A stretch of DNA of 12,086 nt from a virus (taxonomy: Duplodnaviria > Heunggongvirae > Uroviricota > Caudoviricetes). The stretch lies in IMG/VR virus record IMGVR_UViG_3300029517_000086, one strand, 5' to 3'. The notes under the pieces were generated by a model. It made no database searches and had not been told where the DNA came from. It worked only from the letters and a program-made list of their open reading frames with translations. Positions 2,112 through 12,086 of this stretch are shown here, piece by piece (positions within the stretch are counted from its first letter, which is position 1; each line of letters begins with the position of its first letter). The position numbers and the translations under genes were made by a program.

Positions 2112-2450
2112 CTATTTCCCTGAATTTACGACGAAACTTTTCGAGCGGACTGAAGCATTCATGCTCATAGCCTTCGCGGAGGTAGATAACCCGTTGTGTT
2201 TCCGGCTCCCAACGAATGACTCTGACGGGTACTCCGTAGTGATCTTTGAACCAGCGGTTAACTTGTCGCAAAGGACTGTCTCCTTTTGCCGGTTAAAATC
2301 ACCCACAGCCCACTCTGCAAAGCTGTGGGTTACAATTACCCTGCCACCTGGTACATTTACTGCATAGCAATACTCCACCTTCGCTTTTCCACCCGGTACA
2401 GGAAGCGCAATCAGTTGCGAGCGACGGTAGTGTGTTGTTAAACTATTCAT
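2112..2450 (-). CDS. Hypothetical protein (112 aa), between the CII-like gene and the replication gene
   Basis: ATG at 2450..2448 overlaps the TGA of the upstream CII-like gene (ATGA coupling) and its stop lies 9 nt before the replication-gene ATG. Position and length are consistent with the e14 ymfM slot, as recalled. No recognisable motif. Confidence 0.55.
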
Positions 2451-2998
2451 GCGTTAGTTTCTCCACAGTCACGACACGCCACGGCGCCCGGAGCTGCACA
2501 CTCGCGGGCGTCATTACTTTCTGAAATGCAAAAAATTTTGTAGACCAGTGCTGCATGCTCCTGCAGCTTCGAAATTGAGAGGTACAGCTCGTCGTTAATT
2601 GCTGTCTTCTCATGCGGTTCCACTACACCGTCTTCAATTGCTGAACGAATCTGTTTTGAATAACTGCCGATCTGTTCAATGACCTCCAGCAGGCGTTGGT
2701 TGATATCGGCGTTGTCCACATCCTCGACATCAGGAAGAGACACAAAGACGCCATTTGCAGACTGCGCCACAGCGTCAGCAATGAAGTGAGTTCCACCAGC
2801 ACGTTGCAAAATCATTGCCCATCCCAGCGGGAAAATCTGATCGCCATCGGCACGAAGGCGGTTAAATAATGCGTTCTCTGTTACATCCAGCCAGTCAGCA
2901 GCTTCAGCGTAACCCCCCGGCAACGCTGCGATAGTTTTTCTGACAGCTTTCACGTACCACTCAGGCTGTTTTTCTACTTTCCAGTGATGCTTACCCAC
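2447..2998 (-). CDS. CII-like phage regulatory protein (YmfL/CP76-type, tentative), 183 aa
   Basis: Second gene of the rightward early operon, directly after the cro-like gene and overlapping its end by 8 nt. GTG start at 2998..2996 is preceded by AGGAGG. The family assignment comes from position and size only. Confidence 0.6.
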
Positions 2999-3251
2999 GG
3001 TTCACCTCCTGTTCCTGTGGTTTAAACCCATTCTGGTTTTGGCTAGATTGAAAACGTGCCGGATAAAGAATCTGCATTTCGCTGACTTCACCCTTAAAAA
3101 AATTGGCTAAACGTTCTGCAAGCTCGATAGATGGAATCTGCTCCAGCCTCTCAATACGACTCAACGTCGCTGGATTGACTTGAACACCCGCAGCAACATG
3201 CTGCAAAGTGAAACCATGCGCCTTACGCACATTTCGTAATAGTGATTGCAT
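2991..3251 (-). CDS. Cro-like HTH (XRE family) transcriptional regulator
   Basis: 86 aa with an HTH core (FTLQHVAAGVQVNPATLSRIE). Divergent from the CI-type repressor across an operator-rich region. GGAGG sits 4 nt upstream of ATG at 3251..3249. Confidence 0.8.
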   Translation of the reverse strand: MQSLLRNVRKAHGFTLQHVAAGVQVNPATLSRIERLEQIPSIELAERLANFFKGEVSEMQILYPARFQSSQNQNGFKPQEQEVNRG

Positions 3252-3348
3252 ATAACCTCCAAATATTGCGCGTTATGCATGTTATTTCACGCAATTATTT
3301 TGCGCAAGTTGATTTGCTTATCACGCAATAAAGAAATGTAATAAACGC
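3252..3348. promoter_or_regulatory. Divergent immunity promoter/operator region (OR-like) between the cro-like and cI-like genes
   Basis: 97-bp AT-rich intergenic region with repeated ATTGCGYG / CACGCAA half-sites in both orientations: about 3265-3280 aatattgcgcgttatg, 3286-3300 atttcacgcaattat, 3300-3312 tttgcgcaagttg, 3322-3336 atcacgcaataaag. Confidence 0.6.
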
Positions 3349-4041
3349 ATGAACATAGGAAACCGAGTCAGACAACTTCGCCAAGCGAAGAACATGAAAA
3401 TCGCCGATCTCGCTGAAGCAATAGGAGTAGATGCGGCGAACATCTCGCGCTTAGAAACGGGTAAGCAAAAACAATTTACCGAACAAACACTGAGTAATAT
3501 TGCCAAGAGCTTAGGTGTTGATATTGCTGATCTCTTTACCTCTGCCCACAAAAGTAATACTGTATATAAAAACAGTAATAATGAGGATGTTGCGCAGGTG
3601 AAGGATGTGTTCCGTATTGAAATGCTGGATATCAGTGCCAGTGCGGGAAATGGCCTTATCCAAGGCGGTGATGTCATTGATGTGATTCATGCCATCGAAT
3701 ACAGAACTGATAATGCTGTATCAATGTTCGGCGGACGACCAGCCAATCACATCAAAGTTATCAACGTTCGTGGGGACAGTATGTGTCCAACCATTGAGCC
3801 AGGAGATCTCATCTTCGTTGATGTCAGCATCAATCAGTTTGATGGTGATGGTATATATGTCTTTGGTTTTGATGACAAAATATACGTTAAAAGACTTCAA
3901 ATGATTCCTGACAAACTGCTGGTGATTTCTGATAACCAGATTTACCGTGAATGGGGAATTACTAGCGAAAACGAACACCGATTCATGGTCTTTGGAAAGG
4001 TCTTAATCAGTCAGTCGCAAACCCTTAAGAGACATAATTAA
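3349..4041 (+). CDS. CI-type prophage repressor: N-terminal XRE-family HTH plus C-terminal S24 (LexA-like) peptidase domain
   Basis: HTH region (IADLAEAIGVDAANISRLETGK). C-terminal domain with a GDSM serine motif (RGDSMCPTIEPGDLIFVD) and a downstream lysine (IYVKRL), typical of autocleaving repressors. Same strand as int, as for lambda cI. Confidence 0.9.
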   Translation: MNIGNRVRQLRQAKNMKIADLAEAIGVDAANISRLETGKQKQFTEQTLSNIAKSLGVDIADLFTSAHKSNTVYKNSNNEDVAQVKDVFRIEMLDISASAGNGLIQGGDVIDVIHAIEYRTDNAVSMFGGRPANHIKVINVRGDSMCPTIEPGDLIFVDVSINQFDGDGIYVFGFDDKIYVKRLQMIPDKLLVISDNQIYREWGITSENEHRFMVFGKVLISQSQTLKRHN

Positions 4042-4060
4042 CCTCAATATCCCATCCATC

Positions 4061-4085
4061 GGCCACCGAAAGGTGGCTTTTTATT
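4061..4085 (+). terminator. Rho-independent terminator downstream of the repressor gene
   Basis: Stem gccacc (4062-4067), loop gaaa, stem ggtggc (4072-4077), then ttttt (4078-4082), 20 nt after the cI-like stop. Confidence 0.7.
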
Positions 4086-4095
4086 ACCTATAAAT

Positions 4096-4146
4096 TTGCA
4101 TACCTCGCAAATATTACTTGCATATCTCGCAATTTAATTTTATCTT
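4096..4146 (+). promoter_or_regulatory. Candidate leftward-operon promoter with tandem operator-like repeats (OL-like)
   Basis: 20-bp imperfect direct repeat: ttgcatacctcgcaaatatt (4096-4115) and ttgcatatctcgcaatttaa (4118-4137). The CTCGCAA core resembles the half-sites in the cI/cro operator region. A possible -35 TTGCAT (4118-4123) and -10 TATCTT (4141-4146) are spaced 17 nt apart. Confidence 0.45.
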
Positions 4147-4420
4147 TTGTTCCAGACCAACTACCGGATTACAACAAAATCTGGTTGCAACACGGTGCAT
4201 GTGTCGTAAGCAGTCAGTAAATGTCAAAAACGAACAGGCAGGACGCCCACGAAGTAGCCGCCTGGGGCATATGAAGTCCAGGATGATTCGTTGAGTCATG
4301 TTGTGCCACCAGGCACTCATGTTAAAGCAGGTGTATGAAATGAAAGTCCAGATTTTAAACAATAACTGTGAAGTCGTTTGGGCGTAAAACATGACCGCGC
4401 GTAGACCAAGGGAGGAAAAA

Positions 4421-4597
4421 GTGGGAATAGTTAGAAATCAAGCAGATATATTGAAAATCAGCTCTGAATTGCTTGGAGTTTTGAAAAGTGAGCTCACCGC
4501 ACATGGCATCGAGCCCACTGACGAAAATTTAAGTTGGGTTTTGTCGATTATTCAACAATCACTCAAGCCCAGCCTCAGCAAACTTTTTATCGAGTAG
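4421..4597 (+). CDS. Small hypothetical protein (about 58 aa)
   Basis: In-frame GTG at 4421 preceded by GGAGG (4411-4415); the ORF track's longer ATG at 4391 lacks an RBS. Sits between the repressor and the recombination module, where lambdoid phages carry small early genes. Confidence 0.45.
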   Translation: MGIVRNQADILKISSELLGVLKSELTAHGIEPTDENLSWVLSIIQQSLKPSLSKLFIE

Positions 4598-4750
4598 TGC
4601 TTCGAACTTATCGTAAAGCTTGCTTATGTCGTCTATCGGGTTTTCTGACGTACTGTAATTTTTATCTGATGTCATGGCAGCAGTCTGATATGCAGTGTGA
4701 GTCTTAACCGATAGTTGGAATAAATAAAGAATTTTTTCTTCTTTGGTCAT
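4559..4750 (-). CDS. Small hypothetical protein (about 63 aa)
   Basis: ATG at 4750..4748 with AAGGAA 6 nt upstream. Its 3' end overlaps the 3' end of the plus-strand small ORF by 39 bp (convergent). Confidence 0.45.
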   Translation of the reverse strand: MTKEEKILYLFQLSVKTHTAYQTAAMTSDKNYSTSENPIDDISKLYDKFEALLDKKFAEAGLE

Positions 4751-5004
4751 AACTATTTCCTTCTTGGCTATATGAAAACACCAAGATACCACCGAGCCTG
4801 AAGTGGTGAAAAGACAGGCACATAACAGCTAAGTATTTTCAACCAGAGAGAATCCTTAGCGTTGTGGTGAATGCGGCTCAGCGCACGCGGGTTAAGGTTG
4901 AGGCTGACAGTCGACCTTCTGTGGATACCCACCCGTCTGGTGTGCAACCTTCGCCAGGCACCGGGAGGCACCCGGCACCACAACTTTATGCTGTGTGTAG
5001 TCTT

Positions 5005-5051
5005 GACGGTACCAGTTTGTACCCTTGCTTCCGGCTGGTACCGTCCTTTTT
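5005..5051 (+). terminator. Strong rho-independent terminator at the end of a GC-rich non-coding stretch
   Basis: Perfect 11-bp inverted repeat gacggtaccag (5005-5015) / ctggtaccgtc (5035-5045) around a 19-nt loop, followed by c-ttttt (5046-5051). The minus-strand reading has no T-run. Confidence 0.65.
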
Positions 5052-5269
5052 ACAAAACAGAGAAGAGCATCACCGGACGACGGGCTCATAACCCAATCCA
5101 TCCAGGCGGCTGCCACCGCAGGTGTTCTTCACTGTTTTGTGGAGAAACTAACCGCCCCTACGGGGGCATTCATGGAAATGTAATTGACTCGACTCAATAA
5201 TCGCCGGACGGTGAGGGCTTCCTTTTACCCGAATTCAGCGCGGTGCAGCGCATATACGTGGAGAACAAA

Positions 5270-5806
5270 ATGTCATTTATTAAAACTTTTTCTGGGAAGC
5301 ATTTTTATTATGACAGGATAAATAAAGACGACATCGTTATTAACGATATCGCGGTTTCCCTTTCAAATATCTGCCGCTTTGCCGGTCATCTTTCGCACTT
5401 CTACAGCGTCGCCCAACATGCGGTTCTTTGCAGCCAGCTGGTGCCGCAGGAATTTGCTTTTGAAGCGTTAATGCATGATGCAACAGAAGCGTATTGCCAG
5501 GACATTCCCGCACCACTGAAACGCCTTCTTCCTGACTATAAACGGATGGAAGAAAAAATAGACGCCGTAATCCGTGAGAAATACGGGTTACCCCCAGTTA
5601 TGAGTACACCCGTGAAATATGCCGATCTCATCATGCTGGCAACCGAACGCCGCGATCTCGGGCTTGATGATGGCTCTTTCTGGCTTGTACTGGAAGGTAT
5701 CCCGGCAACAGAGATGTTCAACGTGATTCCACTGGCACCGGGCCATGCCTACGGGATGTTTATGGAACGTTTTAAAGAGCTGCATAAGATGCATAAGCAA
5801 TCCTAA
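5270..5806 (+). CDS. HD-domain phosphohydrolase (YfdR-like 5'-deoxynucleotidase family)
   Basis: HD-domain signature residues: H in SVAQHAV and HD in LMHDATEAY. Start chosen at ATG 5270 (MSFIKTF...) with GGAG (5259-5262) upstream, rather than the ORF-track GTG at 5243. Confidence 0.8.
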   Translation: MSFIKTFSGKHFYYDRINKDDIVINDIAVSLSNICRFAGHLSHFYSVAQHAVLCSQLVPQEFAFEALMHDATEAYCQDIPAPLKRLLPDYKRMEEKIDAVIREKYGLPPVMSTPVKYADLIMLATERRDLGLDDGSFWLVLEGIPATEMFNVIPLAPGHAYGMFMERFKELHKMHKQS

Positions 5807-5860: not shown

Positions 5861-6106
5861 ATGCTTCAAATGCTGACACTTGAGGAATGGGCTGCGGAAA
5901 AATTTAGGAGTAACCCTCCAAGTGTGTCCACATTGCGTCGTTATGCTAAGCAGAATTTATTTTGTCCACCGGCAATGAAACAAGGTCGACTATGGCGAGT
6001 ACGTGAGGACGCAGAGTTAGTTGGGGAATTAGTTACTCCTGTCATTAAGAAAAGTGATTCTATTATTCTACAAAGGATTTTAAGTAATGGCAGCCAGACC
6101 ACGTAA
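5861..6106 (+). CDS. xis: Excisionase (lambda Xis family)
   Basis: MLQMLTLEEWAAEKF...STLRRYAKQNLFCPPAMKQGRLW parallels lambda Xis MYLTLQEWNARQRRPRSLETVRRWVRECRIFPPPVKDGREY. Sits immediately upstream of int and overlaps it by 20 nt. Confidence 0.85.
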   Translation: MLQMLTLEEWAAEKFRSNPPSVSTLRRYAKQNLFCPPAMKQGRLWRVREDAELVGELVTPVIKKSDSIILQRILSNGSQTT

Positions 6107-7214
6107 GAATAATGTTTCAGTCCCGAACTTGTATCCGCTCTATAGCAGAAAAGTAAATAAAGTTTATTGGCGATATAAGCATCCAGTGACCGGGAAGTTT
6201 CATTCTTTGGGCACAAACGAAGCTGAAGCCATTGCTATTGCCACTGAGGCCAATACACGCCTAGCTGAGCAAAGAACCCGGCAGATTCTAGCTATCAGTG
6301 ACAGGATCGCAACCAGCAAAGGAAAAGCAATCACAACGTCAACCTGGTTAGATCGCTATCAAGCAATCCAGGAAGACAGACTGAAAAGTGGCGATATAAA
6401 GCTCAACACCTATAAACAGAAAGCCAAACCAGTATCCTTGCTCAGGGAACGAGCAGGACTGAAGTTGATATCAGCCGTTGATGTCAGAGATATAGCACAA
6501 TTACTTGATGAGTATATCTCTGCTGGACAGCCTAGAATGGCCCAGGTCGTAAGGTCTGTATTGATCGATGTGTTTAAGGAAGCACAGCATTACGGCGAAG
6601 TTCCACCAGGGTATAACCCTGCTCTTGCAACGAAGCAACCCAGAAGGAAAATTAGCCGTCAACGCCTCAGCCTAGAAGAATGGAAAAAAATATTCGATAT
6701 CGCAGACGCCGCTCATCGTTATATGGGAAATGCCATGCTCCTAGCTTTGGTCACTGGGCAGCGTTTAGGAGATATATCCAAAATGAAATTTAGTGATATT
6801 TGGGAGGATCATCTTCACGTCATTCAGGAAAAGACCGGGAGCAAAATCGCTATCCCTCTTTCTTTACGTTTGAATGCTATCAACTGGTGTTTACGTGATG
6901 TAGTAGCTCGCTGCCGTGACTACGCAGTCAGCCCATACTTAGTGCATTTTTTCCGTACTACATCACAGGCTGAACGTGGCGCACAGGTAAAAGCTAATAC
7001 ACTAACGATGAACTTTAGCAAGGCACGTGATCTGGCAGAAATTGATTGGGGTACTGGAACTCCTGCAACTTTTCATGAACAAAGATCTTTATCTGAACGT
7101 CTTTACAAGGAACAAGGGGTTGATACCAGAAAGTTACTGGGCCATAAAACCCAGCAGCAAACCGATCGTTACCATGATGACCGAGGCAAAGGATGGAGCA
7201 AAGTAGCGTTGTGA
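6087..7214 (+). CDS. int: Tyrosine site-specific integrase (lambda Int family)
   Basis: 375 aa. N-terminal arm-binding region (PNLYPLY...YWRYKHPVTGKFHSLG) parallels lambda Int (PNLYIRNNGYYCYRDPRTGKEFGLG). Catalytic-domain blocks LVTGQRLGDISKMKFSDI, HEQRSLSERLY and LLGHKTQQQTDRYHDDRG match the lambda Int R...HxxR...Y signature. Confidence 0.95.
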   Translation: MAARPRKNNVSVPNLYPLYSRKVNKVYWRYKHPVTGKFHSLGTNEAEAIAIATEANTRLAEQRTRQILAISDRIATSKGKAITTSTWLDRYQAIQEDRLKSGDIKLNTYKQKAKPVSLLRERAGLKLISAVDVRDIAQLLDEYISAGQPRMAQVVRSVLIDVFKEAQHYGEVPPGYNPALATKQPRRKISRQRLSLEEWKKIFDIADAAHRYMGNAMLLALVTGQRLGDISKMKFSDIWEDHLHVIQEKTGSKIAIPLSLRLNAINWCLRDVVARCRDYAVSPYLVHFFRTTSQAERGAQVKANTLTMNFSKARDLAEIDWGTGTPATFHEQRSLSERLYKEQGVDTRKLLGHKTQQQTDRYHDDRGKGWSKVAL

Positions 7215-7302: not shown

Positions 7303-7785
7303 TTGATAAAAAATATGATAATCAATCAACTCAAAATCACGTATAACGACGATATTTTATCTGCACTTTCAGGAAAAGTGTTTCATGTTACTACTGCAGC
7401 TAATATGCTCCTTATAAAACAATCTGGAGCTTTGGTTCCAAATTCGGAATTATTGCAATTTTCAAGATTTGGAAATACATCTAATGGTTTTTTTAGGCAG
7501 CGCAATTGCGTGTCTTTTTTCGACTATAGATGCTATGGGACTAGATTCTGGAAAGAGCATGCTTATAAATGTTTTCCAACTCAGATCCTTAAACGCGAAC
7601 AAGGTGATAAGATTTCAATACTGTTTCTTCACGAAAGCAAGTTCGAGAAACTGATTCCATGGACTTCTTGGAAAGAAGAAAAAGCATGGGGCGAGAGGGT
7701 TGTCCCGTATGTTGAGACTGGATATAAAGGCATTGTTTCCCTAAGCGATATTACCGAAGAATTAGTTGTTGAGTTTGACTGCTAG
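7303..7785 (+). CDS. Hypothetical protein (156-160 aa), AT-rich cargo gene between int and the host junction
   Basis: Open frame of protein-like composition, no recognisable motif. Start is uncertain (TTG at 7303 or ATG at 7315), both with weak RBS. AT-rich by eye compared with the phage core. Confidence 0.5.
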   Translation: MIKNMIINQLKITYNDDILSALSGKVFHVTTAANMLLIKQSGALVPNSELLQFSRFGNTSNGFFRQRNCVSFFDYRCYGTRFWKEHAYKCFPTQILKREQGDKISILFLHESKFEKLIPWTSWKEEKAWGERVVPYVETGYKGIVSLSDITEELVVEFDC

Positions 7786-11792: not shown

Positions 11793-12086
11793 TTACATGT
11801 TTTCGATGATTGCGTCACCAAACTCTGAACATTTCAGCAGCTTAGCGCCGTCCATCAGACGTTCGAAGTCATAGGTTACGGTCTTGGCGTTGATCGCGCC
11901 TTCCATACCTTTAACAATTAAGTCAGCCGCTTCAGTCCAACCCATGTGGCGTAACATCATCTCAGCGGAGAGAATAATAGAGCCAGGGTTTACTTTGTCC
12001 TGACCGGCGTATTTCGGCGCAGTACCGTGGGTGGCTTCAAACAGGGCGCATTCGTCACCGATGTTTGCACCAGGGGCGATACCGAT
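11793..12086 (-). CDS. icd: Isocitrate dehydrogenase (NADP), 3' portion (C-terminal 97 codons plus stop)
   Basis: Minus-strand translation gives ...[90 protein letters not shown], the E. coli Icd C-terminus as recalled. The gene continues beyond the window end. Confidence 0.95.

Follow-up and report, generated by a model that had tools for sequence, protein, structure and literature searches.

Operator-like dyads on both sides of the cI-like gene in an SfII-like prophage suggest a lambda-type OR/OL switch

The question raised by this locus is whether a cI-like repressor acts only on the spacer between its own gene and cro or also on the plus-strand genes that run from cI toward xis and int. 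The window, a stretch of 12,086 bp that was analysed as a whole, was a lambdoid prophage of the SfII/SfV/e14 family. It was SfII-like and integrated beside the 3' end of icd. Positions 2900-4700 had 99.2% identity to Shigella phage SfII and 100% identity to one E. coli chromosome. The genes and RNA elements used in the analysis were as follows.

2447-2998, minus strand: ymfL, CII-like (Pfam Phage_CP76, PF06892), next to cro
2991-3251, minus strand: cro-like gene, 86 aa (Pfam HTH_3, E 5e-10), annotated as cro in SfII
3252-3348: cro/cI spacer, 97 bp
3349-4041, plus strand: cI-like repressor gene, 230 aa (HTH_3, E 1e-11, also HTH_26; Peptidase_S24, E 6e-19)
4061-4083, plus strand: intrinsic terminator of cI, GGCCACC GAAA GGTGGC (stem 4061-4078) and then a T run; annotated as a terminator in SfII
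4225-4296, plus strand: leader RNA, 72 nt, with helix P1 (4229-4234/4287-4292), helix P2 (4261-4265/4278-4282) and an invariant core (4237-4258)
4831-5054, plus strand: STnc100-like small RNA (Rfam RF02076, 44.7 bits against a gathering score of 47, E 1e-8, full-length alignment)
5243-5806, in the plus-strand stretch after cI: YfbR-like nucleotidase gene
5861-6106, in the plus-strand stretch after cI: xis
6087-7214, in the plus-strand stretch after cI: int
11793-11960, minus strand: icd ORF

The cI-like protein consisted of an N-terminal Cro/C1-type HTH domain and a C-terminal S24 peptidase domain, and its PHROG match was a transcriptional repressor. An Ala-Gly site was found in ISASAGNG, a Ser in GDSM, and a Lys in VKRL. 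The gene was divergent from the Cro-like HTH gene, which is the arrangement of a lambdoid switch. The cro-like gene was the first gene of the rightward-type early operon (minus strand here), with the CII-like ymfL next in line. Among the solved structures closest to the CI N-terminal domain was the 434-repressor derivative 1sq8 (E 4e-4). BLASTP between the CI N-terminus and Cro gave no alignment; an SR(L/I)E motif that both share by eye is generic in XRE-type HTH domains and was not counted as evidence. Two cargo ORFs near icd had no match in PADLOC, Pfam, or PHROGs.

An earlier note on this DNA had described at least four ATTGCGYG or CACGCAA sites between cro and cI, and two 20-bp direct repeats with CTCGCAA just after the cI terminator. 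All of the former were present in 3252-3348: ATTGCGCG at 3265-3272 (reverse complement CGCGCAAT), CACGCAA at 3288-3294 and 3322-3328, and the palindromic TTGCGCAA at 3300-3307. However, they did not form four equal sites. The operator unit was a 15-bp dyad, TTGC-N7-GCAA, with the fuller consensus TTGCATAYCNCGCAA, and the spacer contained two full dyads and three further half-sites. The repeated pair after the terminator was also found, but its unit was the same 15-bp dyad and not a 20-bp repeat. The sites are listed below, those in the cro/cI spacer as OR and those after cI as L1 and L2.

3266-3280: OR dyad A, TTGCGCGTTATGCAT; TTGC-N7-GCAT, one mismatch to TTGC-N7-GCAA; cro-proximal, at -83 from the cI start
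3288-3307: OR middle; half-sites CACGCAA (3288-3294) and palindromic TTGCGCAA (3300-3307), no full 15-mer
3314-3328: OR dyad C, TTGCTTATCACGCAA; perfect TTGC-N7-GCAA, at -35 from the cI start
4096-4110: downstream dyad L1, TTGCATACCTCGCAA; outer bases conserved, centre and flanks hypervariable among relatives
4118-4132: downstream dyad L2, TTGCATATCTCGCAA; spans a candidate -35 and part of the promoter spacer, low diversity

The OR middle may be a weak, cooperativity-dependent OR2-like site, which would make it a third operator. L1 began 18 nt past the terminator stem, and L1 and L2 were at +55 and +77 after the cI stop. Their starts were 22 bp apart and 14 of their 15 positions were identical, the well-matched core being 15-16 bp. 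A repeat finder placed 3314-3328, 4096-4110, and 4118-4132 in one 15-nt family and paired 3265-3285 with 4113-4133 in inverted orientation. The half-site search across the prophage that the earlier note had suggested confined the exact dyad to the two clusters: TTGC-N7-GCAA occurred 3 times in 12,086 bp (3314, 4096, and 4118) against 0.17 expected, and a single mismatch added only the copy at 3266. CGCAA occurred 24 times on both strands of the window, with 7 copies within 115 nt against 0.23 expected (binomial P ~2e-9). The 7-mer CNCGCAA was not enriched across the whole window (7 found, 7.5 expected); therefore, the clustering is the non-random part. Two clusters with the same dyad thus flank the repressor gene, as the note had claimed.

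Whether the downstream sites follow the repressor or the neighbouring genes was investigated in related loci. A search for YmfL relatives gave 80 viral contigs in which YmfL was ~99% identical, combined with five different repressors: type A (that of the window), type B (208 aa), type C (253 aa), type D (228 aa), and type E (the SfV type, 224 aa). For each type, the dyad was defined from the cro/cI spacer and then scanned over the whole locus. The type B dyad, CTAA-N6-TTAG, was at -85 and -36 from the cI start, and the sole other exact copy in the locus was 66 nt past the cI stop. The type E dyad of SfV and SfIV, TGTACC-N7-TACA, was at -84 and -34, with copies 47 nt and, with one mismatch, 67 nt after cI. 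The -83 and -35 positions of the type A dyads were common to types B and E, dyad A matching the -85 and -84 sites. In type C, TGCTA-N7-TAGCA adjoined cI, and its sole other copy was 1.47 kb downstream, beyond inserted genes and 13 nt ahead of the conserved leader RNA. Best 15-mer identity and a matrix of shared 6-mers and 7-mers between spacers had also been tried; both were too noisy in AT-rich DNA and were replaced by the dyad scans.

Four further phages, YeP2, SPN3UB, ST64B, and ZF40, were found through the conserved leader. Both places carried a phage-specific motif in YeP2 (GTCAGATAT) and in SPN3UB (ATCGATA). ST64B, a type-A variant, had TTGC-N7-GCAA at both places. In the ZF40 record cro and cI overlap, so that only the post-cI promoter was looked at and no OR comparison was made. 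CI of mEp460 was 96% identical and CI of ST64B 83% identical to that of the window, with the same HTH segment in all three proteins, and all three loci retained the outer TTGC and GCAA both at OR and after cI, while the dyad centres differed. The spacing between L1 and L2 was 22 bp in the window, 24 bp in mEp460, and 23 bp in ST64B. Both clusters changed together with repressor specificity in types B, C, and E, YeP2, and SPN3UB, and the co-variation was repeated in at least six independent immunity types. These comparisons indicate that the post-cI sites follow the repressor type, not the flanking genes. A blind 8-mer test, which is crude, was also applied to 51 upstream types; 17 were above the null maximum, often 600-950 bp upstream.

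Diversity was then compared among 81 near-identical type-A modules in which CI was essentially identical throughout. OR was identical in 66 of the 81. Nucleotide diversity was as follows.

cI four-fold sites: 0.007
OR, 3262-3348: 0.005
Upstream flank, 4084-4095: 0.105
L1 outer bases (TTGC/GCAA): 0.006
L1 centre, 4100-4106: 0.171
Inter-dyad spacer, 4111-4117: 0.137
L2 outer bases: 0.018
L2 centre, 4122-4128: 0.048
4133-4150, including the -10: 0.012

The centre and flanks of L1 were ~20-fold more variable than its outer bases. These outer bases stayed intact within a hypervariable tract, which shows directly that selection acts on the dyad itself, and the pattern indicates purifying selection on the outer half-site bases of the downstream dyads inside a very variable stretch. 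In at least one relative, a deletion took out one downstream repeat, and L1 is evidently dispensable there.

Two polymorphism hot spots were observed in the type-A modules. Of the 59 common polymorphic sites in 2829-4290, 15 fell within 4084-4132, a stretch with 49 haplotypes among the 81 sequences; all four gametes were present there in 49 of 105 site pairs. Diversity was 0.26, with 11 haplotypes, at 3252-3256, five bases that separate the cro ATG from its Shine-Dalgarno sequence. The type-B modules had no such hot spots. The recurrent changes fall where tuning of operator affinity and of Cro translation is expected, which suggests selection on the set-points of the switch. The hot spots may instead come from local hypermutability or very short conversion tracts.

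The earlier note had also placed a plausible promoter over the repeats after cI. A candidate was found there.

4118-4146, plus strand: candidate early-left (PL-like) promoter; -35 TTGCAT (4118-4123), 17 nt, -10 TATCTT (4141-4146)

It was the best candidate in the window after cI, and between 4085 and 4230 nothing better was found. However, it matched the consensus at only 7 of 12 positions, and a consensus scan of 2900-4700 gave no site reaching 9/12. Relative to this candidate, L2 would span -35 to -21 and L1 about -57 to -43. The candidate was nearly invariant among the 81 modules, and both hexamers were retained in mEp460 despite a different 17-nt spacer. The early-left promoter of the window is thus a putative one, placed by position and conservation and not by sequence match. 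In other phages, promoters pointing away from cI and toward xis/int were found between the cI terminator and the leader (SfV 11/12, ZF40 10/12, SPN3UB 10/12), with the phage's own dyads in or beside the promoter spacer. Candidates for the divergent promoters PR and PRM matched at 7-8/12. A putative cI maintenance promoter was read by eye as TTGCTT, 17 nt, TGTAAT, 6 nt, and ATG, without a Shine-Dalgarno sequence; dyad C overlaps its likely -35. SfV cI had the same 6-nt geometry with TTTAAT. From this geometry, the cI mRNA is probably leaderless.

Among temperate phages of Escherichia, Shigella, Salmonella, Yersinia, Pectobacterium, Pantoea, Klebsiella, and Citrobacter, the leader RNA sequence (4225-4296) was 82-100% conserved, in DNA without annotation, and it lay after a cI-like gene in all four loci fetched (ST64B, ZF40, YeP2, and SPN3UB). 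Its core (21-22 nt) was exact in >120 viral contigs and in 93 stretches of species-representative genomes, nearly all from Enterobacterales, with genera including Xenorhabdus, Photorhabdus, Serratia, and Erwinia. In an alignment of 74 distinct copies two helices were supported. The helices were paired in 94.2% of cells against 64.1% in shuffles, and both sides had changed in 254 cells against 85. The covariation score was 0.743 against 0.193 and was reached by 0 of 500 shuffles. Controls in which the partner was slid by 1-3 columns gave 19-43% pairing. A covariance model (R1) found one copy per phage at 83-93 bits and no copy in mEp460. Rfam gave no match for the leader RNA at E <=1, and the core sequence was not found in print in the literature searched. 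The fold of the whole 193-nt leader had z = -0.29; structure within it is confined to the 72-nt element. On the minus strand, a 'terminator' at 4250-4234 was the complement of the core hairpin beside an A run and was regarded as incidental.

A same-strand promoter scoring 9/12 or better was present in 60 of 126 distinct regions upstream of the leader RNA, and for 52 of the 60 the -10 ended 0-29 nt before P1, with a mode of 12 nt. The leader RNA therefore normally stands at the very 5' end of the early-left transcript, and as a family it shares with put RNAs a place in nascent early RNA directly behind the promoter. In the window, it was 83 nt after the candidate -10.

This distance bears on the explanation that most nearly competes with a repressor-controlled early-left promoter. 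The downstream dyads could bind the repressor without any promoter at 4118-4146, serving as a roadblock to cI read-through or as a looping partner of OR, with the operon starting elsewhere. The 7/12 match, the empty consensus scan, and the 83-nt gap would fit this, since in most other phages the leader RNA follows the transcript start by ~6 nt. However, mEp460 keeps both the dyads and the candidate -10 although it has no leader RNA, the -35 and -10 have outlasted the divergence of their spacer there, no better promoter exists between 4085 and 4230, and sibling immunity types have strong promoters at exactly the equivalent position. This explanation is considered improbable. A different ligand could also be proposed. 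The direct repeats, spaced by about two turns of the helix, lie on either side of a poor -35/-10, as is typical of activator-dependent promoters; activators of the CII kind use direct repeats around -35, and a Phage_CP76 (CII) protein, YmfL, is encoded beside cro. The repeats would then mark a CII-dependent int or establishment promoter outside repressor control. But the repeats are dyad-symmetric with a consensus identical to that of the OR dyads, and a ~99% identical YmfL occurs in loci whose post-cI repeats are wholly different and match their own cro/cI dyads. Since YmfL stays constant while the sites change, it is ruled out as the ligand of the post-cI sites, and the activator explanation as a whole is very unlikely.

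Chance resemblance in AT-rich intergenic DNA, or a duplication left over without function, is the least credible of the alternatives. The flat window-wide count of CNCGCAA and the noise in crude k-mer comparisons between phage spacers could be cited for it. It would have to account for three exact dyads where 0.17 were expected (and for the P of ~2e-9), for repeated co-variation with the repressor, and for half-sites whose outer bases persist inside a hypervariable tract.

A lambda-type OR/OL switch with repressor operators on both sides of cI is therefore preferred, and from the sequence comparisons its probability is put at about 0.8. The likeness to lambda OR/OL that the earlier note had drawn, with repressor control of the operon toward xis/int, is thus supported by the common dyad, by its co-variation with repressor type, and by the conserved outer bases. 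In such a switch, a dimer of the CI-like repressor, with its 434/XRE-type HTH and S24 self-cleaving domain, would bind the 15-bp TTGC-N7-GCAA dyads, and Cro very probably binds the same dyads. The OR cluster would overlap both the cro promoter and the divergent promoter that maintains cI expression. The OL-like cluster would consist of the two dyads 22 bp apart just past the cI terminator. The promoter-proximal L2 would cover the -35 and spacer of the early-left promoter, and the distal L1 probably aids L2 by cooperative binding; looping between OL and OR may also occur. In the lysogen, the repressor would also silence the plus-strand operon, predicted to comprise the structured leader RNA, small ORFs, the STnc100-like RNA, the nucleotidase gene, and then xis and int. 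SOS-induced self-cleavage of CI would free both promoters.

The function of the leader RNA was considered by comparison with put. Like the put RNA of HK022 and the putL-like RNA of HK639, it is an RNA of ~70 nt right after the early-left promoter in lambdoid phages without N, with one copy per phage, as annotated in HK639. However, the window element is a closing helix with an inner hairpin, while put is two tandem stem-loops. Membership of the put family was rejected: the two tandem stem-loops and the conserved CGAACGGCGCG...UAAACCAUGCGUCGG of that family were absent from 4225-4296, the R1 model had no match on HK022 putL, HK022 putR, or HK639 putL, and blastn between the leader RNA and put gave only 8-mers. 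The STnc100-like RNA ends in a 3' hairpin and U run, which would be an internal terminator inside the early-left operon. Because these phages have no N and the operon holds an internal terminator, it is a reasonable hypothesis, by analogy with put, that the leader RNA may act as a cis-acting antiterminator. A further proposal, tentative and on balance doubtful, is that the leader represents a second, put-independent class of RNA antiterminator that is gated by the repressor, with the hypervariability at L1 and at the cro ribosome site acting as tuning knobs. If true, it would provide read-through, for example of the STnc100-like RNA terminator, toward xis/int in lambdoid phages without N.

A repressor type that is common among prophages of E. 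coli, Shigella, and Salmonella now has an operator consensus, TTGC-N7-GCAA, and a map of its operators. Carriers include SfII, mEp460, and several Stx2 phages, with ST64B as a variant. The map is useful for immunity-group prediction, engineering, and prophage annotation, and its value is modest. It also suggests that SfV/e14-like phages, which have no N, retain the two-operator logic of lambda. Two by-products could matter more than the operators. The leader RNA is a widespread, unannotated structured RNA at early-left 5' ends. The natural variants of operator centre under one identical repressor form a ready set for studying how non-contacted bases tune a switch.

In the dyads, as in those of phage 434 (ACAA-N6-TTGT), each half-site keeps four outer bases while the centre varies. 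The centre of the 434 operator is not contacted by the repressor, yet it tunes affinity. The presence of a 434 derivative among the nearest solved relatives of the CI N-terminal domain fits such a layout, with the outer bases conserved and the centre free. The half-site sequence of the window differs from that of 434, and its spacer is odd in length.

Lambda has the same divergent cI and cro with a multi-site operator between them, and the consensus of this operator recurs in a second cluster at the early-left promoter, which lies downstream of the cI terminator and points toward xis/int. In both, the repressor combines an HTH domain with a RecA-sensitive S24-type domain, and the sites are spaced 22-24 bp from centre to centre. 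The window differs in its 15-bp dyad (17 bp in lambda), in having two downstream sites instead of three, and in the distance between the clusters, ~0.78 kb without rexAB between them against 2.4 kb in lambda. It also has no N gene, and no full dyad can be recognised at its middle OR site.

Among closer relatives, SfII, SfV, SfIV, and e14 have the same gene order, ymfL-cro-cI-...-xis-int, and SfII, SfV, and SfIV have no N, CII, or CIII homologues (PMC3851460). In the SfV record, the stretch between cro and cI carries the annotation 'putative operator region'. Neither SfII nor SfV has an operator or promoter annotated after cI in its record, and the SfIV paper mentions an operator/promoter region only in general terms (PMC3851460). 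The OR/OL layout described here is ordinary lambdoid architecture; the new part is limited to the consensus and the map of the operators in this immunity type.

Polymorphism among the 81 immunity modules carrying the repressor type of the window (type A) was concentrated in two sharp hot spots, at 4084–4132 and 3252–3256, and the modules were near-identical elsewhere. The hot spot at 4084–4132 covered the centre and flanks of L1, the distal of the two putative operator dyads after the cI terminator. It comprised 49 haplotypes, with numerous four-gamete pairs. The hot spot at 3252–3256 consisted of the 5 nt that separate the ribosome-binding site of cro from its start codon, with 11 haplotypes. 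No comparable hot spots were found in the type-B modules, which carry another repressor.

Operator rearrangements were observed in two relatives. IMG/VR contig 2529293213_000044 (L053) had a deletion of 22–23 bp at the equivalent of window 4096–4117, which takes out one downstream repeat precisely and leaves the other as a lone dyad at the promoter. Yersinia phage YeP2 (L167) had a tandem duplication of the post-cI operator/promoter segment and a repressor gene fragment at 1236–1600, upstream of the leader RNA. This RNA is the following element:

4225–4296, plus strand: structured RNA element, 72 nt

The core of the leader RNA, GGCAGGACGCCCACGAAGTAGC, was invariant, and covariation backed two helices. 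Many Enterobacterales prophages, with dozens of distinct immunity regions among them, had one copy each, directly 3' of the early-left promoter. No Rfam family matched the element, and its relatedness to the put RNAs of HK022 and HK639 was not detectable. Mosaic junctions among relatives were located near 4201 (mEp460 group) and near 4292. A 22-codon remnant of SfV orf33 (MLKQVYEMKVQILNNNCEVVWA) at 4317–4385 stopped at another junction near 4381.

Farther along the window, one small RNA and two ORFs were annotated:

4831–5054, plus strand: STnc100-like small RNA (Rfam RF02076; E 1e-8; 44.7 bits, gathering score 47)
7303–7785, plus strand: ORF of 160 aa
8212–11334, minus strand: ORF of 1040 aa

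The small RNA ended 3' in a hairpin and U run within the operon linking the immunity region to xis/int, and contained a weak DicF-like match (4992–5046). Both ORFs are located in the interval from int to the 3' end of icd, and neither had a match in Pfam, PADLOC or PHROG. Their cargo position is that of lit, ymfD and ymfE in K-12 e14, and they are possibly uncharacterised accessory or defence genes.

The cI start codon had no Shine-Dalgarno sequence, and a −10-like hexamer, TGTAAT, lay exactly 6 nt 5' of it (3337–3351 for hexamer and codon together). The SfV counterpart of this hexamer, at the same distance, was TTTAAT (L002, the SfV locus, 2917–2936). The missing Shine-Dalgarno sequence and the 6-nt distance suggested that the cI mRNA is leaderless, like the cI mRNA from lambda PRM.
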